DNA of 64,000 bases from Candidatus Nanoarchaeia archaeon (GCA_028706745.1 JAQTVM010000001.1:12399-76398); one strand, 5' to 3'. Positions 31,574 through 63,534 are shown, numbered from the stretch's first letter. Numbers and translations: made by a program. The notes: generated from the letters alone by a model not told the origin.

Positions 31574-32041
31574 ATGAAATGCCCGTATTGCGGCTGCAAG
31601 GAAACAAAAGTCACTGACAGCAGGGAAAGCAACGAAGAGCCTGTCACCAGAAGAAGGAGGGAATGCCCTAAATGCAAAAAACGATTCACGACATACGAGC
31701 GCCTTGAAACATCAAATGTCATTGTCGTAAAAAAAGACGGCAGGAGAGAGCAGTTTGACAGGGAAAAGCTCAGGAGAGGCTTGTTAAGGGCGTGCGAAAA
31801 AAGGCCCATCTCATCAGACAAAATAGATTCAGTAATCAGCGATATGGAATCAGACATAACTTCCTCGGGAAAAACAGAGGTTGCAAGCAGATTGCTGGGT
31901 GAAAAAGTAATGTCTGCGCTGAAAAAGCTGGACAAGGTGGCATACATCAGGTTTGCTTCTGTCTACAGGGAATTCACAGACCTTGAAACATTCCAGGAAG
32001 AGCTAAAGACGCTTCTCAAGAAGCAGAGGGGGAAAAGATGA
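31574..32041 (+). CDS. nrdR: transcriptional repressor NrdR (Zn ribbon plus ATP-cone)
   Basis: CPYCGC...CPKC; near-identity to the bacterial NrdR signature (KVAYIRFASVYREF). Confidence 0.85.
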   Translation: MKCPYCGCKETKVTDSRESNEEPVTRRRRECPKCKKRFTTYERLETSNVIVVKKDGRREQFDREKLRRGLLRACEKRPISSDKIDSVISDMESDITSSGKTEVASRLLGEKVMSALKKLDKVAYIRFASVYREFTDLETFQEELKTLLKKQRGKR

Positions 32042-35000
32042 TAACCCGGATTAAAAAAAGAGACGGAAGCATTGTTTTTTTTAACAAGGCAAAGATAAGC
32101 GATGCAATATTCAAGGCGGCAAAGTCAGTAGGGGGAAAAGACAGAAGAAGGGCTGAACATCTTGCCTTAATGTCTGTTGAGCTTCTTGAGCAAAGGGGCT
32201 TTTGCGAAGAAAAGATGCCCAATGTCGAGGATGTGCAGGATGCTGTTGAAAAAACGCTCATAGAAGAGGGGCATGCGCAGACAGCAAAAGCATACATAAT
32301 CTACAGGGAGCAGCACAAGAGAATAAGGGAATTCCATTCCTATGTAAACTCAAACGAAATAATGGACGGCTACCTTAACCAGCTTGACTGGAGGGTAAAG
32401 GAAAACAGCAATATGAGCTTCTCGCTCCAGGGATTAAACAACCATATATCATCCATAGTAAGCTCAAACTACTGGCTTCACAAGATTTACCCGCCTGAAG
32501 TGAGGGAAGCGCACATTGAAGGAGACATACATCTTCACGATTTGCAGATACTCGGCTCCTATTGCTGCGGCTGGGACATAATGGACTTGATGATAAAAGG
32601 ATTTGGCGGAGTTCCTGAAAAAGTCGAGAGCATGCCTGCAAGGCACTACAGGGCAATGCTCGGGCAGATAACAAACTTTTTCTACACTCTTCAGGGGGAA
32701 ACAGCAGGTGCGCAGGCATTTTCAAATTTTAATACAATGCTGGCGCCTTTTGTGAAGTATGACCATCTTGAATACAAGGAAGTAAAGCAGGGAATGCAGG
32801 AATTCTTATTTAACATGAATGTGCCGACAAGAGTAGGTTTTCAATGCCTTTCAGCAGACACAGAAATACTTACGCCCACAGGATGGAAAGGATATGGAGA
32901 TATTAACAAAGGCGAGATCATAGAAACATTTAATCTAAGAACAGGAATAATCGAGCATCAAAAAGTTGCCTCTTTTTTTAGAAAGGAATATACGGGCAAG
33001 ATGTACCGCCTGCAAAATCGCATCCAGGACCAGCTTATTTCTCCAAATCACAGAGTTGTAAGAAAAAAATTTCAGACAGGAGAGAATGTTTTGGAGCCTA
33101 TCGAGGAAATTTTGAAGCTCAAGTCTCCTTTTATTATTCCAATTGCCGGAAAAAATAGCAAGCCGGAAGCAAAAATAGAAGACAAGCAGATAAAATTGAT
33201 GGCATGGATTATAAGCGAAGGCACTATTGAAAGGCCAACAAAGTACAGATGCTGTTACAGGGTGAGTATATACCAGTCAAAGATTAAAAATAAAACCAAT
33301 TACAAAGAAATAAAATCACTTTTGCACTATTTTAAACTTGAATTTTCAGAATATGAAGTCGCCTCTTTGGGAGAGAGCGTAACAAGAATGAGGCTGAACG
33401 CAGAAAGCTCAAAAAAAATACATAAATGGTTTGGAAGCAGGGAAAATATCCATTTTATTCCTGATTATTTATTGAATTTAAGCGAAAGGCAATCGCGCTT
33501 GTTTTTGGATACATACATTAAAGGCGAAGGCTTTGAAGGCTGCAAAATATCTGTTTCCGACATAGCCTTGCTAGACAGGCTGCAGATTATCATTGTCAAT
33601 TCAGGATTTGGCTCGAGCATATTAAAACGAAAGCCGACAATCGGCAAGAAAGATATTTTTGTATTAAGGATTATAAGACATAAAGATACGTATATTTCAA
33701 AAGTAAGCCAAGTAAATTACAAAGGAATTATATGGTGCCCGCATACCAAAAATGAGACAGTAATTGCCAGAAGAAGAGGAAAAGTGTTTATTACAGGCAA
33801 TACGCCTTTTACAAATTTAACTCTGGATATTGAAGTGCCTGAAAATCTGAGAAACAGCCACGCAATAATCGGCGGAAAGCCCATGCCCGAAGTGTACGGC
33901 GATTTCCAGAAAGAGGCTGACATGGTAAACAGGGCTTTCCTGGAAGTTATGTCAGAGGGGGATGCAAAAGGGAGGATATTCACATTCCCAATACCTACTT
34001 ATAACATAACAAAAAACATTGATTGGGAAAACCCTGCCCATGACACATTATTTGAAGTTACGTCAAAATTCGGGCTGCCTTATTTTGCAAACTTTGTAAA
34101 CTCAGAGATGAGCCCTGACGATGCAAGAAGCATGTGCTGCAGGCTTAGGCTTGACAACAGGGAATTAAGAAAAAGAAGCGGCGGATTATTTGCTTCAGCC
34201 CCATTGACAGGAAGCATAGGCGTTGTAACACTTAACATGCCTAGGATAGCGTTTGCAGCAAAAGATGAAACAAAATTTGCAGAGCGCGTGGTTGAGCTTA
34301 TGAGAATAGCAAAAACAAGCCTTGACATAAAAAGAAAGGCGGTTGAAAGATTCACGGAGCAGGGGCTTTATCCCTATGCAAAAAAATACCTCGGCGGGGT
34401 AAAACAGGCAACAGGGCAATATTGGGGAAATCATTTCAACACAATAGGGCTTATAGGAATGAACGAGGCGTGCCTTAATATTCTTGGAGAGAACATTGCT
34501 TCAAACAAGGGCAGGAATTTTGCGCTCAGGATTCTTGACGTAATGCGCGAAGAGCTAAGGCAATACCAGGAAAGCACAAACGACAATTATAACCTCGAAG
34601 CAACCCCTGGAGAAGGATGCAGCTACAGGTTTGCAAAGATGGACAGGGAAAGGTTTCCGCAAATAAAAACAGCAGGAGAGCAAGTGCCTTATTACACAAA
34701 CAGCACCCACCTCCCGGTAGGATATACAGACGACATATTTGAAGCGCTTGACCTGCAGGATGAACTTCAGTGCAAGTACACAGGCGGAACAGTGCTTCAC
34801 GGGTTTGTCGGAGAAAGAATATCAGACCCGGAAACATGCAAGAAACTCGTTAAAAAAATAGCCAGTAATTATAAGCTGCCTTACTTTACAATAACCCCGA
34901 CATTCAGCGTATGCCCTGAGCACGGTTATATTGCAGGCGAGCATTCACAATGCAAGAAAGAGACAGCAGAAGGGGCATGCGGAAAGCAGTGCGAAGTTTT

Positions 35001-35142
35001 TTCAAGGGTAGTCGGCTATTACAGACCTGTCCAAAGCTGGAATAATGGGAAAAGAGAGGAGTTCAGGCAGAGAAAAGCTTACTGCGAAAAGAAAAGCATT
35101 GAAAGCATGGAAAAAAAACAGGGATTCAGGTTTGCGATGTAA
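32038..35142 (+). CDS. nrdD: anaerobic ribonucleoside-triphosphate reductase NrdD, intein-containing
   Basis: ATP-cone at N-terminus. The GFQ/TPFTN active-site region is interrupted by a 319-aa insertion. C-terminal Zn ribbon and glycyl-radical motif RVVGYY are present. Extein about 715 aa. Confidence 0.85.
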   Translation: MITRIKKRDGSIVFFNKAKISDAIFKAAKSVGGKDRRRAEHLALMSVELLEQRGFCEEKMPNVEDVQDAVEKTLIEEGHAQTAKAYIIYREQHKRIREFHSYVNSNEIMDGYLNQLDWRVKENSNMSFSLQGLNNHISSIVSSNYWLHKIYPPEVREAHIEGDIHLHDLQILGSYCCGWDIMDLMIKGFGGVPEKVESMPARHYRAMLGQITNFFYTLQGETAGAQAFSNFNTMLAPFVKYDHLEYKEVKQGMQEFLFNMNVPTRVGFQCLSADTEILTPTGWKGYGDINKGEIIETFNLRTGIIEHQKVASFFRKEYTGKMYRLQNRIQDQLISPNHRVVRKKFQTGENVLEPIEEILKLKSPFIIPIAGKNSKPEAKIEDKQIKLMAWIISEGTIERPTKYRCCYRVSIYQSKIKNKTNYKEIKSLLHYFKLEFSEYEVASLGESVTRMRLNAESSKKIHKWFGSRENIHFIPDYLLNLSERQSRLFLDTYIKGEGFEGCKISVSDIALLDRLQIIIVNSGFGSSILKRKPTIGKKDIFVLRIIRHKDTYISKVSQVNYKGIIWCPHTKNETVIARRRGKVFITGNTPFTNLTLDIEVPENLRNSHAIIGGKPMPEVYGDFQKEADMVNRAFLEVMSEGDAKGRIFTFPIPTYNITKNIDWENPAHDTLFEVTSKFGLPYFANFVNSEMSPDDARSMCCRLRLDNRELRKRSGGLFASAPLTGSIGVVTLNMPRIAFAAKDETKFAERVVELMRIAKTSLDIKRKAVERFTEQGLYPYAKKYLGGVKQATGQYWGNHFNTIGLIGMNEACLNILGENIASNKGRNFALRILDVMREELRQYQESTNDNYNLEATPGEGCSYRFAKMDRERFPQIKTAGEQVPYYTNSTHLPVGYTDDIFEALDLQDELQCKYTGGTVLHGFVGERISDPETCKKLVKKIASNYKLPYFTITPTFSVCPEHGYIAGEHSQCKKETAEGACGKQCEVFSRVVGYYRPVQSWNNGKREEFRQRKAYCEKKSIESMEKKQGFRFAM
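32845..33801 (+). mobile_element. intein (Cys1 ... terminal Asn, +1 Thr) with degenerate LAGLIDADG-like homing-endonuclease region
   Basis: Starts CLSADTEIL (block A) right after GFQ and ends ...VFITGN followed by TPFTNLT; internal LMAWIISEGT and FLDTYIKGEGF blocks. Confidence 0.7.
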
Positions 35143-36519: not shown

Positions 36520-36945
36520 CTAAGCTATCTTTGCCTTGACAGGGTGCTTTGCGCCGCAGGCAGAGCAGTGCATGAAAAGCACATTGCCTTCCTTCTTCAG
36601 CTGGGTGTCAGGCCTGTTGCATTCTGTGCAAAGCACGAAATCCTTTGCAAACTGCTCTACCTTTGAATTAATCAGCATTGAAGTCAGCTTTCTTCCAAGA
36701 ATAAGCCTTGCTCCGTCAATCGCGGCAGGTGTTGCAAGCTCTCTCTGGAGGTATTTCAAAACCTGCGCCGGCTCTCTCCTGAATATGCTGCAGATGTCTA
36801 TGAAGTTTGCGATTATTGTCTTGTTGCCCTCAACATGCCCTCTTACCTTGGGTATCTCAAACCTTTCTGATTTAAGATGCACGTCAGGCAAAAGCTCCTT
36901 TGCCCTCTTGAGCAATGCGCGGTAATCAAAGATGTTTTCAGCCAT
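36520..36945 (-). CDS. eif2b: translation initiation factor 2 beta subunit
   Basis: KTIIANF...ELAT...C-TEC-...CSACGA zinc ribbon; 141 aa. Confidence 0.85.
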   Translation of the reverse strand: MAENIFDYRALLKRAKELLPDVHLKSERFEIPKVRGHVEGNKTIIANFIDICSIFRREPAQVLKYLQRELATPAAIDGARLILGRKLTSMLINSKVEQFAKDFVLCTECNRPDTQLKKEGNVLFMHCSACGAKHPVKAKIA

Positions 36946-36968: not shown

Positions 36969-36992
36969 TTATAATACTTTGCCTTAAAGCGC
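36969..36992. repeat. 24-bp direct repeat TTATAATACTTTGCCTTAAAGCGC (copy 1)
   Basis: Identical to 38480..38503. Contains a TATA-like TTTATAATA/TTTAAGG on the minus strand about 25 bp upstream of the aIF2-beta ATG, and overlaps the HEPN stop codon. Confidence 0.9.
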
Positions 36993-37454
36993 ATTTAGCT
37001 TCATTAGTATCTCCTCTTTGAGCTTATTGAAATAAAGCCTGAATTGCAGCTCAATTTTTTTCCAATCATCAAAGTTGACAGGTGTACCATAATAATGGAT
37101 TCCATTCCTTTTGGTCCTCACTATTTCAAAGAAATCCCAATCAAAATCCAATTCAGGATGTATTTCACATAAATAAGCAAAAAGGCACTGGTGGTTATCA
37201 ATTTTAATCCTGTCAAAACGCAGAAAAGATTCAGCCATTTCATGCAGTGCATCATAATAAAGCTTGTATACGCTGTTCCATTCGATGCTGTCTTTAGGAA
37301 TATCTGCAATAAGGCGGTTGGCTGAACTTATGTCGCCTTCTGCAATATCCAATGTTGACTTTATCTTATGAATATCAACGAACTCAACAGCTAAGAATTT
37401 GCCTTCCTTTTTGCATCTGCAAAATGCATCTTTTAGCACAAGATATTCAGGCAT
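36984..37454 (-). CDS. HEPN domain protein (toxin-antitoxin component)
   Basis: R-x4-6-H motif RTKRNGIHY; 8-nt overlap with the upstream MNT gene. Confidence 0.6.
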   Translation of the reverse strand: MPEYLVLKDAFCRCKKEGKFLAVEFVDIHKIKSTLDIAEGDISSANRLIADIPKDSIEWNSVYKLYYDALHEMAESFLRFDRIKIDNHQCLFAYLCEIHPELDFDWDFFEIVRTKRNGIHYYGTPVNFDDWKKIELQFRLYFNKLKEEILMKLNAL

Positions 37455-38073
37455 TTATACTAGCCCTCACAAAATTCATGTCTCCTTTGATAAGATTGCC
37501 TTTTATTATGTTGCTTAATAGCCCTTCGCCAAATTTTTTAAGCTCGCCCTTGTCCTTGCAATTAAATATTTCAATATCCCTGTGAAGCTTTTGCTCAAAA
37601 CCGGCCATTTTCAGCCCGGAATAATCGCCATAAATAAAAATGTCAATATCACTCTTCTCATACCAGTCCGAGCGGGAAAAGCTGCCAAAAAGCACTACTG
37701 TGTCTGCCGCAGGCAAAGAAGCGAGATGGTTCAAAAGCCCTGAATTGTAAAGCTCGTTTAGCGCAAACAGCTTTTTTCTGTTCTTGTATGCCGCTGACTC
37801 GTAATTACCTATATAAAAAGGCATTTTTCCATTTTCCTTTGCCTTCTTTATAATGCCTTGCTTCAAAAATACCTTAAGCCAGCCCGCAGCCTTGCTTCTG
37901 GTAATTTTTGCCTGCTTGAGTATCTCCTCAAAATGCCATTCCCTTGTAGGATTATTGAAAAAGAGCCCAAGCACATTGTCTTCCTTGCTTTTCATAATAG
38001 TTTCTATAATGGGAACTAATTTATAAGCTTTGCTCTTGATGTCCATAAACCACAGTAAAAAGAGATTGTTCAT
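37447..38073 (-). CDS. wHTH plus minimal nucleotidyltransferase (MNT) protein
   Basis: GSFSRSD...DIDIFIY (GS-x9-13-DxD NTase motif); N-terminal winged helix. Confidence 0.65.
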   Translation of the reverse strand: MNNLFLLWFMDIKSKAYKLVPIIETIMKSKEDNVLGLFFNNPTREWHFEEILKQAKITRSKAAGWLKVFLKQGIIKKAKENGKMPFYIGNYESAAYKNRKKLFALNELYNSGLLNHLASLPAADTVVLFGSFSRSDWYEKSDIDIFIYGDYSGLKMAGFEQKLHRDIEIFNCKDKGELKKFGEGLLSNIIKGNLIKGDMNFVRASINA

Positions 38074-38091
38074 AAACTCTTCGGCTCAAAT

Positions 38092-38228
38092 TCCGCAATA
38101 TTTCCGGCAAACCTTGGAAAACCAAAGGAGGCAGCAGGAAAAATAGAGCCAAAATCACGCAAAAACCAATAAATTTCCAACATCTCCGAAAGGGTATTTT
38201 TACCTCTCGTCGTCAAAGCTGGCTTTGC
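38092..38228. repeat. ~140-bp noncoding element, copy 1 (about 70-75% identical to 46470..46620)
   Basis: Shared blocks ATTCCGCA..ATTTCCGGCAA.CCTTGGAAAACC, CCGAAAG and CTCGTCAAAGCTGGCT. Confidence 0.7.
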
Positions 38229-38456
38229 TTATTCATGCTCTTTTGGAACGCGAATGCGCAATGGCTTGTATGGCGGCTGTGATAATTCAAGCCCGGGCAA
38301 GCAATAATTATTCCTGCCCGTGGGGTCTTCCTTAACTGCCTTTCTCCAATATTTTACCGCCTTTCTGAATATTTCTTTTTTTTCTTTATCATCATTAAAC
38401 CCTAAAAGAATATCTTTCGCAAATTCTATCTCATATTCCAAGCTTTTGCCAGCCAT
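38229..38456 (-). CDS. hypothetical small protein
   Basis: ORF 38229..38477 uses a TTG start; first ATG gives MAGKSLEY...; no family recognised. Confidence 0.25.
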   Translation of the reverse strand: MAGKSLEYEIEFAKDILLGFNDDKEKKEIFRKAVKYWRKAVKEDPTGRNNYCLPGLELSQPPYKPLRIRVPKEHE

Positions 38457-38479: not shown

Positions 38480-38503
38480 TTATAATACTTTGCCTTAAAG
38501 CGC
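38480..38503. repeat. 24-bp direct repeat TTATAATACTTTGCCTTAAAGCGC (copy 2)
   Basis: Perfect copy; immediately upstream (minus-strand sense) of the small ORF ending at 38477. Confidence 0.9.
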
Positions 38504-44993: not shown

Positions 44994-45323
44994 TTACTGT
45001 CTTAAGCCGGCCAGCTTTGAAACAAGCTCATTGAAAACAACCTGCTTTTTTTCTTTTGGCAAAGAAAACAATATTTTCTGAACCATTGCCTCTGATATTG
45101 TAAAGATGTAATTAAGCTTGATTATGCTGTCTTTTACAGCGCCTTCTTTCCTTGAAAGCGCAATCCCTTCCATTGAAGTGTTGGATGTTATCCCTGCAAC
45201 AGCCACATTGCCGTGCTCCTCAAATAATACAAGAGCAGGCCGCTTTTTAACTTCAAAAGTGTCCGCAAATTGGACAGAGGCAAGCACCACATCTCCCGCC
45301 TTAAGCATTCTCCCACACCTCAT
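44994..45323 (-). CDS. MazF/PemK-family toxin
   Basis: GDVVLASVQF...KKRPALVL...VAGITSN pattern of the CcdB/MazF fold. Confidence 0.55.
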   Translation of the reverse strand: MRCGRMLKAGDVVLASVQFADTFEVKKRPALVLFEEHGNVAVAGITSNTSMEGIALSRKEGAVKDSIIKLNYIFTISEAMVQKILFSLPKEKKQVVFNELVSKLAGLRQ

Positions 45324-45522
45324 CTTCCTTGTTGTCCCAAAGCTCTTTCATCTTTTGCTGTTGTATCTTGTGCAGGAATTCATCGTATTGGTTTCTTTTC
45401 TTTACGCTATGGAATACCTTTATCATATGCTCAATCAGCTCGGCATAAGTCTGCCTTGGATATTCCTTCAGCTCCTGCATTGCCTTAACAAGCGCCTTGT
45501 CTATCTGTATTGTCGTGTTCAT
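45301..45522 (-). CDS. ribbon-helix-helix antitoxin (partner of MazF-like toxin)
   Basis: Internal Met start MNTTIQIDKALVKAMQEL; 23-nt overlap with the toxin gene. Confidence 0.45.
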   Translation of the reverse strand: MNTTIQIDKALVKAMQELKEYPRQTYAELIEHMIKVFHSVKKRNQYDEFLHKIQQQKMKELWDNKEDEVWENA

Positions 45523-45600
45523 TATATATTCACTATAGTTGGCATATAATCTATTATATATAAGCCTTGCGGATGTTTTGGTTTTGACTATATTTTCCAT

Positions 45601-46434
45601 TCAGGCGCACCCCTCTTTCCTTAAGCCGTCATAAGGGCTTTTAACCGAAATAAAGGCAGAAGGGCACATGTGCACATAAACCATTGTTGTTTCCGCACTG
45701 CTGTGCCCCATCAGGGGCTGGACAGCTGAAACACTGTATCCATTTTCAATCAAATGAGTTGCAAAAGAATGCCTTAATGAATGCGGATGAACCTTCTTCT
45801 TAATGCCTGCCTTTCTTGCAGCATCCCTTACAGTCTCCTGCACGCTCCTCGGATGAAGCGGAAAGCCATTTCTTCCTGCAAACAGCCAATCCTCTCCTGC
45901 ATCACAAACAGCCTTTTTCAGCCTTTCACGCAGGCACTCTGCTATAATAAAAGGCCTGTCCTTGTTTCCCTTTCCGTGCCTTACCCATCCAATGCATCTC
46001 TCAAATTCAAAATCAATAGTTCTTAGGTTAAGAGCCTCGCTTACCCTTAATCCTGCAGAATACAACAACTCAAGAATAAGCCTGTGCTTTTCATTATCAA
46101 CAGCAGAAAAAAGTCGAAGCACCTCATCTTTTGTAAGGAATACAGGCAGCGTTTTCGGCACCTTTGAATACTTAATCCGCCAAGTGACTCTTTTGTGCAA
46201 AACCTCTTCCATCAGGAACTTCAGCGCATTCACGTGCACGTTCAGCGTATTGCCGCACTTATTCTCCGCAACAAGCACGTCGATATAATCCCTAACATCC
46301 TTTGACGTAACGCGCATGAATTCCTTAGGGCAAAAGCGCATGAACTGCCTGACACACTGTATATAAGTAAGGATTGTCTTTCGGCTTAGCCCTCTTCTAA
46401 GCATCTCTTTTTGCATGTTGTAGATAGCGTCCAT
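45601..46434 (-). CDS. tyrosine recombinase, XerC/XerD/XerA-like, without IntI-specific insertion
   Basis: C-terminal HPHSLRHSFATHLIENGYSVSAVQPLMGHSSAETTMVYVHM (R..HxxR...Y). Only ~55 aa lie between the KGNKDR and LRHSF boxes, versus ~100 aa in IntI. Start taken at MDAIYNM (46434). Transcribed away from the cassette array. Confidence 0.8.
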   Translation of the reverse strand: MDAIYNMQKEMLRRGLSRKTILTYIQCVRQFMRFCPKEFMRVTSKDVRDYIDVLVAENKCGNTLNVHVNALKFLMEEVLHKRVTWRIKYSKVPKTLPVFLTKDEVLRLFSAVDNEKHRLILELLYSAGLRVSEALNLRTIDFEFERCIGWVRHGKGNKDRPFIIAECLRERLKKAVCDAGEDWLFAGRNGFPLHPRSVQETVRDAARKAGIKKKVHPHSLRHSFATHLIENGYSVSAVQPLMGHSSAETTMVYVHMCPSAFISVKSPYDGLRKEGCA

Positions 46435-46469
46435 ATAAAGGAGGCAAGAAGCTCGTCCCTTAAAAAATC

Positions 46470-46620
46470 TTCGCACAAAATTCCGCAGGATTTCCGGCAA
46501 CCCTTGGAAAACCCACCAAGCCAGTCGAAAATTATATGCAAAAATAGGCAAAAGACACAAAAATTTACAACATCGCCGAAAGCACTTTTTGAGAACCCTC
46601 GTCAAAGCTGGCTAACTAAA
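46470..46620. repeat. ~140-bp noncoding element, copy 2, in the attI-like region between recombinase and first cassette
   Basis: see copy 1 at 38092..38228. Confidence 0.7.
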
Positions 46621-46705
46621 ACGTGACGACAAAAAATCAAACAATGGCTCTACCAAAAGCCGCCTGAAACCCGCAAAAAGAATGAATTCCTGTGTCTTCT
46701 CGCAT

Positions 46706-46736
46706 ATAGACTGTTAGGCAACATTTGGGTTTGGGC
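46706..46736. repeat. attI-like junction: unique left half (CATATAGACT) plus conserved right half GTTAGGCAACATTT plus left inverted repeat of cassette 1
   Basis: GTTAGGCAACATTTGGG is identical to the start of cassette 4; the left side is unrelated to the attC-like left half. Confidence 0.55.
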
Positions 46737-46748
46737 TAAAAACACTTC

Positions 46749-46979
46749 TTAGAATTTTGCATATAATGGTTCTTTGGGAATTTTTATCATGTAACTATGT
46801 TTACCAACAATTATAATTCCTTCTTCTAAGCCCCATTCAAATAAGTCTTGAGGATTAAACTCAGGAGGAACTCCACCCCTATAAGGTCTAGCCATTAAAC
46901 CTTCTATTCCCTTTCTTAATGCGATAGGCTCAAAAATATGTCCGTCTATTTCTGAAAAAAATTTGTATATATCAAACAT
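46749..46979 (-). CDS. cassette 1 ORF, hypothetical 76 aa
   Basis: Bracketed by the inverted repeats TTTGGGTTTGGGC (46724-46736) and GCCCAAACCCAAA (47038-47050). Confidence 0.35.
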   Translation of the reverse strand: MFDIYKFFSEIDGHIFEPIALRKGIEGLMARPYRGGVPPEFNPQDLFEWGLEEGIIIVGKHSYMIKIPKEPLYAKF

Positions 46980-47037
46980 TTTTTACTCCTATTCATTGTT
47001 AATATTATACCCCTATATAAGTATTATGGTTTTAAAC

Positions 47038-47162
47038 GCCCAAACCCAAACGCTGCGCCCCTGCGGGGGCTTGCCCGACCAGCTCTGGAGCTTGCTGTGA
47101 GGCTCACTTCGCTCGCACTCCAGCTGCGCTCCGAGGGTCGGGTCGCCTAACAGTCGTTAGGC
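47038..47162. repeat. attC-like site 1: cassette IR plus GC-rich module plus palindromic core GCCTAACAGTCGTTAGGC (47145-47162)
   Basis: about 70% GC in a <40% GC genome; conserved blocks AAACGCTGCGCCCCTGCGGGGGCTTGCCCG ... CGAGGGTCGGGTCGCCTAACAGTCGTTAGGCA. Confidence 0.7.
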
Positions 47163-47233
47163 ACAATTTGAGTTGGGACTTCCCCACCGACAAAAGCAAT
47201 ACATTTATATATTTCTAGCAATTTACAAAGGAT

Positions 47234-47566
47234 ATGGTTAGAAAAATATTAAGAAAAACAATAGAAGATTTACCTGTTTGGAAAATAAAATATGGATTAA
47301 CAAGAGGCGATCTAATTCTTATTCATGAATTAGCATTAATCACATTTAAACCTAATGTATTAAATAACTATTTTAAACAAGAGATGGGTGGGGTTCTTGG
47401 TCGTAATCAAGATTGCTCCATTATTTACTTTGCTCGCAATCTCCTTTTAGAAAAGGGTTTGCCACATGCTTTTGTCGGAATGAAATCTGATATGGATGGA
47501 GAAGATTATAAGTTAATACCTGTATCAGATATAGAATCTTACGAAACTCTTAAATTAAAACCTTAA
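47234..47566 (+). CDS. cassette 2 ORF, hypothetical 110 aa
   Basis: Bracketed by TTTGAGTTGGGAC (47167-47179) and GTCCCAACTCAAA (47579-47591). Confidence 0.35.
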   Translation: MVRKILRKTIEDLPVWKIKYGLTRGDLILIHELALITFKPNVLNNYFKQEMGGVLGRNQDCSIIYFARNLLLEKGLPHAFVGMKSDMDGEDYKLIPVSDIESYETLKLKP

Positions 47567-47578
47567 TTGTATATATTC

Positions 47579-47714
47579 GTCCCAACTCAAACTTCTCCGC
47601 TCCTCGCCTGCGGGCTGCGGTGCTCGACCTGCGCAGCTCTGGGCTCGTCAGGAGTGCTCGCTGTCGCTCGCCTCGACTTCGCCCGAGGCGCAGGGTGCCT
47701 AACAGTCGTTAGGC
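47579..47714. repeat. attC-like site 2 (divergent GC-rich module plus core 47697-47714)
   Basis: Same terminal GCCTAACAGTCGTTAGGCAACATT; the GC-rich body is more diverged than at sites 1, 3 and 4. Confidence 0.65.
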
Positions 47715-47766
47715 AACATTTTCCAAAAAGTCCGAAAACACAAAAAGGGAAAGGAAAAAGAATTAT

Positions 47767-48075
47767 CTAAATTCTAGCAGCAACCAAGGGATTATAATAA
47801 TAATCAAACACTAACATAACTGGGGATTTGTTATATATTTTCACTAATTGCCAACCACACTCTTGTTTAGAGGTATGTTTATATTGTTCAAGTACCTTAC
47901 TAAGAGTTCTAATATTTATATCATTTCCAAAAGTTATAGTAGCATGACAAGAAGTTTCATCAGAAGTATAATTATATTCCTTCTCCAATCTCAAAGCTTT
48001 ATTTAATGCTTTACGGATCTTTTGTTCAAGATTTTGATTTGGTGTTGTCTTATCTACTCTTAATTTTATATCCAT
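47767..48075 (-). CDS. cassette 3 ORF, hypothetical 102 aa
   Basis: Bracketed by ATTTTCCAAAAAGTCCG (47718-47734) and CGGACTTTTGGAAAAC (48193-48208). Confidence 0.35.
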   Translation of the reverse strand: MDIKLRVDKTTPNQNLEQKIRKALNKALRLEKEYNYTSDETSCHATITFGNDINIRTLSKVLEQYKHTSKQECGWQLVKIYNKSPVMLVFDYYYNPLVAARI

Positions 48076-48192
48076 TTTTACCCCCTACAATGTTGTTATT
48101 TAAGAGATATGACAAATATATAAGCCTTTCGGTGAGAGGTTATTTATTCCTTTCCCTCATTAACCTATCATTAAAGGGCTTCGCCCCGTTAG

Positions 48193-48313
48193 CGGACTTT
48201 TGGAAAACGCTGCGCCCTGCGGGGCTTGCCCGCTCATCCTCGAACTCGCCATGATGGCTCGCTCCGCTCGCCTCGGCTCGTTCGGGGAGCGGGTCGCCTA
48301 ACAGTCGTTAGGC
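48193..48313. repeat. attC-like site 3 (GC-rich module plus core 48296-48313)
   Basis: see site 1. Confidence 0.7.
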
Positions 48314-48332
48314 AACATTTGGGAACCGAAAC

Positions 48333-48560
48333 TCAGTCCCTTAAAGGCAATTTTCCACATATTTCATCAAAGTGTGTAACCTTGATATCATATAGAGAAT
48401 AAGTAGAATATTTTGTACCAAAGTTATCATTTATTGCATTTATTGCCAATGTGTAGGCTACTACTTTATCTTCATTAGGTTTTCCAAATCCATTTAATTC
48501 ATGTAATACCATATGTTGTAGCGATTTTACGACTTTGTCTAAAGAAGTTTGTTCTGTCAT
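48333..48560 (-). CDS. cassette 4 ORF, hypothetical 75 aa
   Basis: Bracketed by TTTGGGAACCGAAA (48318-48331) and TTTCGGTTCCCAAAC (48608-48622). Confidence 0.35.
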   Translation of the reverse strand: MTEQTSLDKVVKSLQHMVLHELNGFGKPNEDKVVAYTLAINAINDNFGTKYSTYSLYDIKVTHFDEICGKLPLRD

Positions 48561-48607
48561 TATAATACCACCTCAATAGGAAAGAATTATCTTTCAGTTT
48601 TTATAGC

Positions 48608-48754
48608 TTTCGGTTCCCAAACGCTGCGCCCCTGCGGGGGCTTGCCCGCCCAGCTCTGGGGCTTGCCCGCCCAGCTCTGGGGCTTGCCAGGATGGCTCGC
48701 TACCGCTCGCCTCGGCTGCGCCCCGAGGGTCGGGTCGCCTAACAGTCGTTAGGC
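48608..48754. repeat. attC-like site 4 (GC-rich module with internal 21-bp tandem duplication plus core 48737-48754)
   Basis: CTTGCCCGCCCAGCTCTGGGG occurs twice inside the module. Confidence 0.7.
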
Positions 48755-48810
48755 AAAATTACAGGCGGCTCATAAGACTAATAACAAGAAAAGAACAAAC
48801 GGCGGGCGGC

Positions 48811-62086: not shown

Positions 62087-63534
62087 GCCATGAACTTTAC
62101 CACTTTCACTTCTCTTGTCTTCAAATTAACAACAGGCACCCTTGCAGGCTCAGGATTATGCCCTACTTTTTCCTGGAATGCTGTTTTTGACTGCCAGCAC
62201 GAGCCTGAAAGCAGAGTTGTGCTTTTGTAATTGCTTATTGCTGTCTTGTGTATGTGACCTGTTATGAAAATGTCAGGCACCTTGTCAATAACCAACGGGT
62301 CTGTTTTCTCATCAGGAATATACAATGAAGAGCCGTGCGTGGGACAGAGGTGCCTTTTTTGAAGCAAATGCTTCATCACAAGATCACCCCTATCATATCC
62401 GCCATTATGCCTTATGCTTTCAACATTTGAAATATAATAATCAAAGCTGTAGCCGTGGTACATCATTACATTGAATCCGGGAAAACCTTTAACAGCATGA
62501 ATATTAATCATCGCGGGGTTTGAAACAAATATTGCATTGGAAAGCGTATAAAGCGCAGCGGCATATGTCTTTTCAAGCACAGGCTGCGGCTCTGAAATCC
62601 TTATTGCATCGTGGTTTCCTCCGCAGATTATTATTGAAATATCCTTTCTTATTATTGAAAGATACCTTGCGCATTCATTATACTGCTCAATAATGTCTTT
62701 TATCTCAAGCTCATTGTCCTGCTCAGGATAAATTCCTATGCCGTCAACGAGGTCTCCTGCAATAAAAAGGTATTTGATTTTCATTGCCTCTTTTTTTTGC
62801 TCGTCAGTTCCTGTCTCGCCGTTAATCCAGCTTATAAATTTAAGAAATTCATCTTTCAGGAACATCTTTGAGCCTATATGCAAGTCTGATATGAATGCGG
62901 CGGAAACATCATCCGGTCCTTTTTTGAATTCGGCAACAGGAATGTCAGGCAATAACAAGTCATTTACAAAAAAAACTTCTCCATTGCAGCTTCCTGTCAC
63001 GCCTATGACTTCATCCATTGTAAGCTCATTTGCAGATTCAAATGATTTTCTATTGTCTTTTCGCACAATTGCTTTCATATGCCCTGACTGGTCTTCAAGA
63101 GTAAGGCAGATGTTTCCGTTTTTTGTTTCTTCCTTCTTAAGAACCATTCCGACGAGAGATGTTTTTTCCATTGTTTTTTTCTCAGTTGCCCGTTTTATGG
63201 AAATTGCGGACTGCATATCCAGCCTGTTCATAAGAATATCCCTTAACTGGTCATATCTTGCCCTCATATATGAAACAAAATGCCCTACTTCTCTTTTCTT
63301 TGGCTCTTCATTATAGGATTTTATAACAAAAACAGAAGGTTTCAGCTCTGCAGATGAAACAAACAAGGCATCTATCATTGAATTGTCAAAAAAAACAGGT
63401 GTATTTTTTCTTTCAATAAGGGAAGCTGCCTGCATTATGTCCTCTGCTTTCCTGCTTTTCAGAATATAATCCATGGCAGAAGGATTAAGGAATATGTTTT
63501 TTTGCATGAATGCAGAAACAATGTCAGCGCTCAT
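62083..63534 (-). CDS. polB2: DNA polymerase II (PolD) small subunit DP1 (calcineurin-like 3'-5' exonuclease)
   Basis: OB plus phosphoesterase motifs (DLHIGS, GNHD, GHIH); overlaps DP2 by 4 nt. Confidence 0.85.
   Translation of the reverse strand: MSADIVSAFMQKNIFLNPSAMDYILKSRKAEDIMQAASLIERKNTPVFFDNSMIDALFVSSAELKPSVFVIKSYNEEPKKREVGHFVSYMRARYDQLRDILMNRLDMQSAISIKRATEKKTMEKTSLVGMVLKKEETKNGNICLTLEDQSGHMKAIVRKDNRKSFESANELTMDEVIGVTGSCNGEVFFVNDLLLPDIPVAEFKKGPDDVSAAFISDLHIGSKMFLKDEFLKFISWINGETGTDEQKKEAMKIKYLFIAGDLVDGIGIYPEQDNELEIKDIIEQYNECARYLSIIRKDISIIICGGNHDAIRISEPQPVLEKTYAAALYTLSNAIFVSNPAMINIHAVKGFPGFNVMMYHGYSFDYYISNVESIRHNGGYDRGDLVMKHLLQKRHLCPTHGSSLYIPDEKTDPLVIDKVPDIFITGHIHKTAISNYKSTTLLSGSCWQSKTAFQEKVGHNPEPARVPVVNLKTREVKVVKFMA

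Follow-up and report, generated by a model that had tools for sequence, protein, structure and literature searches.

A putative promoter-bearing regulatory module upstream of a XerA-like recombinase gene and an MNT-HEPN operon in a Nanoarchaeia archaeon

A non-coding element of about 180 bp occurs twice in a stretch of 64,000 nucleotides from Candidatus Nanoarchaeia archaeon (below, the window), each time directly in front of a gene start, and it recurs with a conserved pattern of constraint in related genomes. We suggest that this element is a promoter-bearing regulatory module, native to the platform of a XerA-like tyrosine recombinase and reused at an operon for an MNT-HEPN toxin-antitoxin (TA) pair. 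Judging from comparison of the sequences, we would put the probability of this reading at roughly 60%.

The gene content of the window (TBP, MCM, an RPA-like OB-fold protein, aIF2-beta, IleRS) is that of a small archaeal genome. To our knowledge, transcription control in DPANN archaea is all but unexplored, as is the regulation of their recently described cassette-recombination platforms. The element provides a defined and conserved target of ~180 bp, with two natural contexts in one genome and nine sequence variants. It may also be a clean archaeal case of promoter-region reuse, where the regulatory part is exchanged and the segment from TATA to ATG is gene-specific. If the two operons are truly co-regulated, toxin-antitoxin activity would be linked to cassette shuffling. 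If they are not, the element would be an unremarkable duplicate of an intergenic promoter region.

Two copies in the window

The copies and the genes around them are as follows.

46435-46613, minus strand: copy B of the element, adjoining the 5' side of the XerA-like recombinase gene (nhmmer E 1e-43)
45601-46434, minus strand: XerA-like tyrosine recombinase, 277 aa, first gene 3' of copy B
45301-45600, minus strand: DUF7557 antitoxin-like gene, contiguous with the recombinase gene
44994-45323, minus strand: MazF/PemK-like toxin gene, contiguous with the recombinase and DUF7557 genes
38047-38224, minus strand: copy A of the element, occupying the entire gap from the ORF75 stop to the wHTH-MNT ATG (nhmmer E 5e-42)
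37447-38046, minus strand: wHTH-MNT nucleotidyltransferase, 199 aa, antitoxin-like, first gene 3' of copy A
36984-37454, minus strand: HEPN-like partner, 156 aa, with an 8-nt overlap with the MNT stop
38229-38456, minus strand: ORF75, 82 aa from an upstream TTG, function unassigned, its stop 5 nt from the 5' end of copy A
36969-36992: right copy of a 24-nt perfect direct repeat that bounds the block of ORF75, copy A, MNT and HEPN-like genes
38480-38503: left copy of the same repeat

Positions 38074-38224 and 46464-46613 are 74.3% identical over 152 columns (blastn, E = 5e-20), which agrees with the 70-75% given in a preliminary description of this DNA; the three shared blocks quoted there can all be located in both copies. 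The Smith-Waterman score of the pair is 113, against 20.2 +/- 2.6 for 500 dinucleotide shuffles, about 35 SD above them. Both copies are direct repeats on the same (minus) strand. The limits first assigned to the repeat were slightly too narrow, since similarity continues toward the start codons and the true element spans 38047-38224 and 46435-46613 (~180 bp). As the same description had it, each copy lies directly 5' of a gene start in the minus-strand sense, the recombinase ATG at 46434 and the wHTH-MNT ATG at 38046. No third copy was found by blastn or nhmmer within the 64-kb window, and none in the flanking Logan contigs of the same organism (L110-L112), which extend both window ends.

The recombinase, DUF7557 and MazF/PemK-like genes presumably form one operon. 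At the other locus, the N-terminus of the wHTH-MNT protein is winged-helix-like, with a weak match to TrmB (E 0.16) and PF01978 listed for some homologues. The gene that follows it has no Pfam match, and we call it HEPN-like because of its position and an Rx6H motif read from its sequence.

The block carrying copy A had been described as a cassette bounded by direct repeats, and the perfect 24-nt repeat around it bears this out. Each copy of the repeat is made up of the final two codons of the preceding gene with its stop codon (GCGCTTTAA) and, after them, a BRE/TATA-like AAAGTATTATAA; an ATG follows ~24 nt past it (aIF2-beta at 36945, ORF75 at 38456). The 24-nt repeat is a second duplicated promoter piece. 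Similarity between ORF75 and aIF2-beta is limited to the ~70-nt promoter/start region. The idea that ORF75 is a duplicated aIF2-beta N-terminus was rejected, as BLASTP gives E 0.14 at an unrelated position and no relation. ORF75 is absent at the related locus L108, where the order is RPA-like gene, element, MNT.

Relatives, constraint and a predicted promoter

Related loci were retrieved through homologues of the recombinase and of the MNT protein and then searched with an nhmmer profile of the element. The preliminary description would have regarded the similarity as a chance local duplication if neither further copies nor conservation existed. This is clearly not the case: the search returned seven further full copies from related groundwater Nanoarchaeia contigs, nine in total, and their positions are constrained as set out below. 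Six copies lie at recombinase loci (copy B, L001, L006, L002, L005 and L149; recombinase proteins 71-100% identical) and three at MNT genes (copy A, L108 and L113; MNT proteins 89-100% identical). In L113 the MNT gene stands behind a complete core site, long-form spacer and element, which is the place of the recombinase gene in the window.

Outside this group, the element was not found by nhmmer at 79 metagenome loci with recombinases of <=60% identity, nor in L150 (65%). A scan of GTDB representatives with CTTTCRGNRATGTTGKAAATT yielded 19 bacterial matches to the pattern only, the source genome evidently not being among the representatives, and three pattern scans of IMG/VR gave chance matches only. 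Copies in related lineages together with empty wider scans indicate that the family is real and confined to a narrow lineage; the nine copies from this lineage are the whole sample for the comparisons that follow. CGGAAT-type boxes and a mid-spacer T-run do occur at similar distances upstream of recombinase genes that are 50-65% identical. An attempt to align the spacers of distant recombinase loci to the element gave 47% column identity with many gaps, and we consider them not alignable. L001 (5660-5730) and L006 (590-660) have an extra, truncated and diverged copy of the 5' part of the element (TTTTTTGTCGTCTC...AGCCGGGTTTGACAAC...GGCTTTGTGAACG) ~170 nt upstream of the full one, which points to a local duplication within the spacer.

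The nine copies are 54-90% identical, and only 5 of the 183 columns of their alignment are gapped. In alignments that included the tested sequences, copy A agrees at 59 of the 70 positions (84%) at which the five recombinase-type copies are invariant, versus 65 of the 141 variable ones (46%), the variable positions being scored against copy B (Fisher p = 6e-8). Similarly, L108 keeps 64/70 invariant positions versus 88/141 variable ones. Hence the same positions are protected in paralogues and orthologues. The parts of the element to which we refer below are these.

38070-38085, minus strand: BRE/TATA-like box of copy A, CCGAAGAG-TTTATGA, hexamer start at -30 from ATG 38046
46460-46475, minus strand: BRE/TATA-like box of copy B, GCGAAGA-TTTTTTAA, hexamer starts at -32/-31 from ATG 46434
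38088-38123, minus strand: GGAAAT-box block of copy A, GGTTTTCC-N10-CCGGAAAT-N4-GCGGAATTT, just upstream of the BRE
46478-46513, minus strand: GGAAAT-box block of copy B, 87% identical to that of copy A
38171-38224, minus strand: 5' boxes of copy A from the alignment, AGCCAGCTTTGACGACG ... CCTTTCGGAGATGTTGGAAATT
46561-46613, minus strand: 5' boxes of copy B from the alignment, AGCCAGCTTTGACGAGGG ... GCTTTCGGCGATGTTGTAAATT

The element ends in what appears to be an archaeal core promoter. All nine copies have GAAGAG followed by TTT(T/A)T(A/G)A (TTTTTTAA or TTTATGAA) about 22-25 nt before the ATG, and the TTTATGAA variant of the TATA box is common to all three MNT-type copies. Over the 38 long ORFs of the window whose upstream 60 nt we surveyed, TATA-like hexamers are concentrated in the seven positions from -34 to -28 relative to the ATG; these hold 23 hexamers, and hardly any fall outside them. 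In the two window copies they start at -30 to -32, a placement typical of this genome that suggests a core promoter for near-leaderless mRNAs. An A/T-rich TATA, a purine-rich BRE and a fixed distance to the start, by which archaeal core promoters are recognized, are all present. An ATG at 38073 falls within the TATA box, so the MNT start must be 38046, in agreement with the 199-aa NCBI protein. The element had been tentatively called a mobile promoter or leader. We retain the promoter on the grounds of the TATA position, the sequence features of mobile promoters (see below), the two gene contexts and the occurrence in several genomes. We drop the leader, since the TATA position implies near-leaderless mRNAs with essentially no leader at all. 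In L005 the element is separated from the recombinase gene by a gene for a 90-aa protein (orf90) that has a TATA box of its own; the link of the element to the recombinase start is thus not a strict one.

One minor observation concerns assembly. Two Logan contigs from the same organism (L106 and L107, MNT 100% identical) both start within copy A, 22 nt ahead of the counterpart of ATG 38073 and 49 nt ahead of the MNT start at 38046; the repeat, or strain variation at this place, may have broken the assembly there.

Most archaeal promoters need far less than 180 bp, so a promoter alone does not explain the size of the constrained region. The odd feature is the unusually long constrained part upstream of the promoter, which is nearly free of indels. 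Its boxes gave no match to any verifiable archaeal operator. No clear palindromic operator was found in the element either, and two dyads reduce to complementarity between A-runs and T-runs.

Kinship of the GGAAAT boxes with origin-recognition dyads (TTTCCnnTGGAAA, L111) was considered and rejected because of their spacing (10 nt versus 3 nt). The L111 dyads are of some interest on their own. About 0.7-1.3 kb past the right end of the window (L111 2834-3427) there is a 590-nt intergenic region beside orc1/cdc6, a gene that spans window position 63531 to beyond 64000. A ~100-nt AT-only stretch in this region is flanked by inverted ORB-like dyads (TTTCCTCTGGAAAG, TTTCCTGTGGAAAA, TCCACTTGAAA, TCCAAAGGAAAT), and the region is likely a replication origin.

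Parts of the element have different histories. The TATA-to-ATG segment groups by downstream gene (L108-L113 85%, A-L113 68%, B-L001 76% and A-B 45% identity). The 5' boxes of L108 are 94% identical to those of copy B, and its GGAAAT boxes are 97% identical to those of L001. From this mosaic it follows that the exchanged unit is the part upstream of TATA, BRE included. On these comparisons, the upstream part is kept alike at the two loci through recombination or gene conversion, through repeated capture, or through both.

This brings us to mobile promoters. Matus-Garcia, Nijveen & van Passel (2012; PMC3488235) regard as a putative mobile promoter a stretch of >=50 nt with >=80% identity and unrelated flanking CDSs, and in their survey the conserved stretch was typically 50-100 nt. 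Copies A and B are 84% identical over 50 ungapped nt (38074-38123 versus 46464-46513) and 80% identical over 55 nt. Their downstream CDSs are unrelated (recombinase, Phage_integrase, versus nucleotidyltransferase), and so are the upstream ones (ORF75 versus the cassette ORF 46749-46979, no BLASTP match). Like mobile promoters, then, the element is a homologous, putatively promoter-bearing upstream sequence before non-homologous genes within one genome. Unlike them, its shared part lies mainly upstream of TATA (~-45 to -185), with a gene-specific stretch from TATA to ATG; it has two copies per genome, it is longer than 50-100 nt, and its host is a DPANN archaeon. The element does not have the features of a MITE or a derivative of an insertion sequence, for which terminal inverted repeats, a target-site duplication and many copies would be expected: there is no inverted repeat at its ends, and two copies were found in the 64 kb plus the Logan flanks.

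We can now spell out how the module would work. The BRE-like GCGAAGAG and the TATA-like box would give rise to near-leaderless mRNAs of the recombinase-DUF7557-MazF operon and of the wHTH-MNT-HEPN-like operon. The ~140 nt upstream of them would hold a series of DNA boxes with constrained spacing: CAGCTTTGACGACGGG, GGCTTTCGGnGATGTTGGAAATT, phased T-runs and GGnTTTTCC-N10-CCGGAAAT-N4-GCGGAATTT. These boxes most likely bind at least one protein that governs how active the neighbouring promoter is; candidates are MNT with its winged-helix N-terminus, the recombinase and a host factor. The invariant oligo-T runs may also terminate transcription from the upstream gene on the same strand, which is present in every context. 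The module would be native to the interval between the core recombination site and the recombinase gene and would have been placed before the MNT-HEPN TA operon later, with its upstream part still swapped between the two loci by recombination or gene conversion.

Core site, cassette-like units and the accessory-sequence alternative

Copy B is situated between the recombinase gene and an attI-like GTTAGGC junction at 46713, which opens a series of four cassette-like units.

46700-46719: attI-like/dif-like recombination core, GCCTAAC-AGTC-TATATGCGA in the minus sense, with the GTTAGGC junction with the first cassette at 46713
46614-46699, minus strand: long-form spacer from the core to copy B, with boxes TTTTTTGTCGTCAC (46623-46636) and GGGTTTCAGGCGGCT (46658-46672)

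The cassette-like units occupy 46713-48760, and their repeats end at 47162, 47714, 48313 and 48754. Each unit ends in a ~70-nt GC-rich imperfect hairpin (CCCGACC...GGTCGGG) and a dif-type palindrome, GGGTCGCCTAA-CAGTCG-TTAGGCAACAT, and each cassette ORF is flanked by its own inverted repeat of 11-13 nt, for example TTTGGGTTTGGGC at 46724 and GCCCAAACCCAAA at 47039. The four repeats terminate in GCCTAAC-AGTC-GTTAGGC. In folding they form a GC-rich hairpin and, apart from it, a short dif-like palindrome, not an attC closed by R'' and R'; with their 11-6-11 palindrome they look more like the dif architecture described in PMC2958812 than like canonical attC.

The recombinase itself is best matched by the XerA model (NF040815, 214.8 bits against a cut-off of 220). 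TIGR02249 and VchIntIA (2A3V) match it in two separate parts that leave out the stretch following residue ~177-185, and by this comparison of models the IntI-specific additional domain is absent. Taken together with the hairpin and dif-type ends, this means that the locus resembles a Xer-type cassette array and not a canonical integron. Of the four cassette ORFs, three share the strand of the recombinase gene and point toward it. We found no conserved cassette-directed promoter (Pc) among the copies; a TATA-like box on the cassette strand occurs only in copy B (46524).

Guerin et al. are said to have described, in 2009, an integron intI-attI region with a LexA box in PintI. Like such a region, the element at copy B lies between a crossover site (the GTTAGGC junction) and a tyrosine-recombinase gene and bears the predicted promoter of that gene; a stress-type regulon shared with toxin-antitoxin genes is also conceivable here. 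Unlike it, the recombinase is XerA-like and lacks the IntI domain, there is no conserved cassette promoter on the opposite strand, and the same region is duplicated at a locus without a recombination site. Putative archaeal attI sites and archaeal integrons have been described by Ghaly et al. 2022 (PMC9668308).

How far the core lies from the element differs greatly between loci. L002 and L005, which do without the spacer, have ~15 nt between the two; for B, L113 and L149 the figure is ~95 nt, and for L001 and L006 it is ~260 nt. The long-form spacer boxes are common to L001, L006, L113 and L149, and L108 has the first box only. We also asked whether the long-form spacer might have been left over from the RPA-like gene's 3' end and rejected this, because the local alignment scores are within the range of shuffles (70-421 of 1000 shuffles score as high). 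In more distant relatives, a core site (Y)TAAC-NGTNT-ATATGCGA is found upstream of recombinase genes that are 50-60% identical to that of the window. It lies at -197 to -199 from the recombinase ATG in L007, L023, L024 and L025, at -143 in L032 and -148 in L034; in L002 and L005 the distance is about -210. Although these spacers no longer align, the distance that they span from core to gene appears conserved in its own right.

Such observations could mean that the element is an accessory or architectural sequence for recombination, binding the recombinase or its helpers, and that the copies on the MNT side are displaced relics. All recombinase-type copies lie between core site and recombinase gene, the MNT-type copy L113 retains core and long-form spacer, the four distant loci with unalignable spacers agree in their core-to-ATG distance to within 2 nt, and the element is almost free of indels. 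However, there is no core site near copy A or L108, and both keep the constrained positions; the function of the element thus does not need the core. A range from ~15 to ~260 nt does not fit a fixed nucleoprotein geometry, and the recombinase is a short Xer-type protein without an arm-binding domain. We therefore regard a recombinase-binding accessory sequence, which the preliminary description had put forward, as disfavoured and, overall, unlikely.

In such a role the element would be comparable to the direct repeats of attI or to the accessory arms of the Xer sites cer and psi. At cer and psi, accessory sequences of ~180 bp lie beside the core at a fixed distance and bind proteins that impose resolution selectivity. 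The element resembles these sequences in being a conserved, indel-poor stretch of ~180 bp near a dif-like core of a Xer-family recombinase. It differs in its variable distance from the core, in the absence of any core at two copies, and in ending in a predicted promoter. Xer recombination is reviewed in PMC5357621, and archaeal XerA is reported to be active without partners of the cer/psi type (PMC2958812, PMC3646895).

Shared control and weaker alternatives

Both copies precede operons with a toxin-antitoxin pair, and the first gene of one operon has a winged-helix-like N-terminus, a potential operator binder. In these two respects the element is reminiscent of autoregulated TA operators. If the upstream boxes are a common operator platform, one DNA-binding protein could couple the recombinase operon to the TA module, and the winged-helix N-terminus of the MNT antitoxin would be the most obvious candidate for that protein. 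Coupling of this kind would parallel, in an archaeon, the way LexA/SOS governs integron integrases. In a variant of this idea, the element would mark a promoter-proximal slot for gene swapping, occupied by orf90 in L005 and by MNT in L113. Even when this variant is counted in, we consider such coupling decidedly improbable. The TA families concerned are unrelated (MNT/HEPN versus DUF7557/MazF), so one shared operator is not expected under classical autoregulation.

The element could also be a functionless leftover of duplication, with copies that look alike only through recent gene conversion. The mosaic identities tell us that exchange between copies does happen, and there are only two copies per genome. 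But at least three lineages, with MNT proteins 89-100% identical, have kept both loci and their elements, paralogues and orthologues are spared substitutions at the same positions, and indels are nearly absent at up to 46% divergence. A leftover of this kind is very unlikely.

Hardly any more credible is that the element encodes a small non-coding RNA or acts as a riboswitch or other cis-regulatory leader. Its conservation, its non-coding nature and its length would suit such an RNA, local hairpins can be drawn, and one pair of a dyad (H2) has a UA/AU exchange in three sequences. Every analysis of structure nevertheless speaks against it. Rfam gave no match at gathering score in the window, and at E <= 1 only a chance miRNA match (E 0.92). 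In eight folds covering both strands, z-scores against shuffles are -0.2 to -1.3, with no excess of stability. RNAalifold, run on both strands, gives negligible consensus energies of -6.5 and -3.2 kcal/mol for 160 nt, with covariation terms of -0.08 and +0.33. Of the two dyads that can be drawn around the GGAAAT boxes, H1 equals its shuffles and has no covariation; H2 is weakly above its shuffles, scores almost equally when slid by one column, and has no register-specific covariation. The structure and covariance analyses proposed in the preliminary description were thus run on the copies and supported no structure, which leaves little of the small RNA suggested there. Finally, there is no conserved internal TATA box on either strand of the element, and because the TATA-like box is at its 3' end, the conserved part lies upstream of the predicted transcription start.

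A 37-residue micro-protein (MLEI...AKSF) is effectively refuted: the frame from a conserved ATG to a stop within the TATA box is open and of the same length in 6/8 copies, yet in copy B the frame is broken by two stops, the earlier one at codon 3, L005 has no ATG and is frameshifted, variable columns are spread over codon positions as 23/23/20 with no third-position excess, and on a T-rich, A-poor strand stop codons are expected to be absent anyway.

Some further observations were made on the genes at these loci. In related loci, recombinase genes are regularly accompanied by TA pairs of varied families. DUF7557 and MazF/PemK stand beside the recombinase gene in the window (44994-45600) and in L150 (1500-2703), which also has MazE and PIN. 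The orf90 gene occurs in L003 (196-791) with a ParE/RelE-like partner, in L002 (1903-2302) with a toxin remnant, and alone beside the recombinase gene in L005 (1946-2221). Depending on the genome, it is upstream or downstream of the recombinase gene. Its presence with the recombinase in L002, L003 and L005 made orf90 a candidate for a universal partner or regulator; it was rejected, being absent from the window by tblastn.

In L109 (3560-3700) an MNT-HEPN pair, whose MNT is a 69% identical homologue, has no element upstream. It is preceded by a GC-rich stretch (CCGCACCCCGCTGCGCTCCCACTCC...GGGACACATAAC) resembling the cassette-end repeats, and for this reason MNT-HEPN may itself circulate as a cassette in this group.

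Inteins are a last point. In the window, a 1034-aa ribonucleotide-reductase-like ORF (32038-35142) has an apparent intein-like insertion, recognized by eye from its ends (CLSADTEILT ... VHN-type). EF-2 of L005 has Pfam matches to intein and LAGLIDADG.
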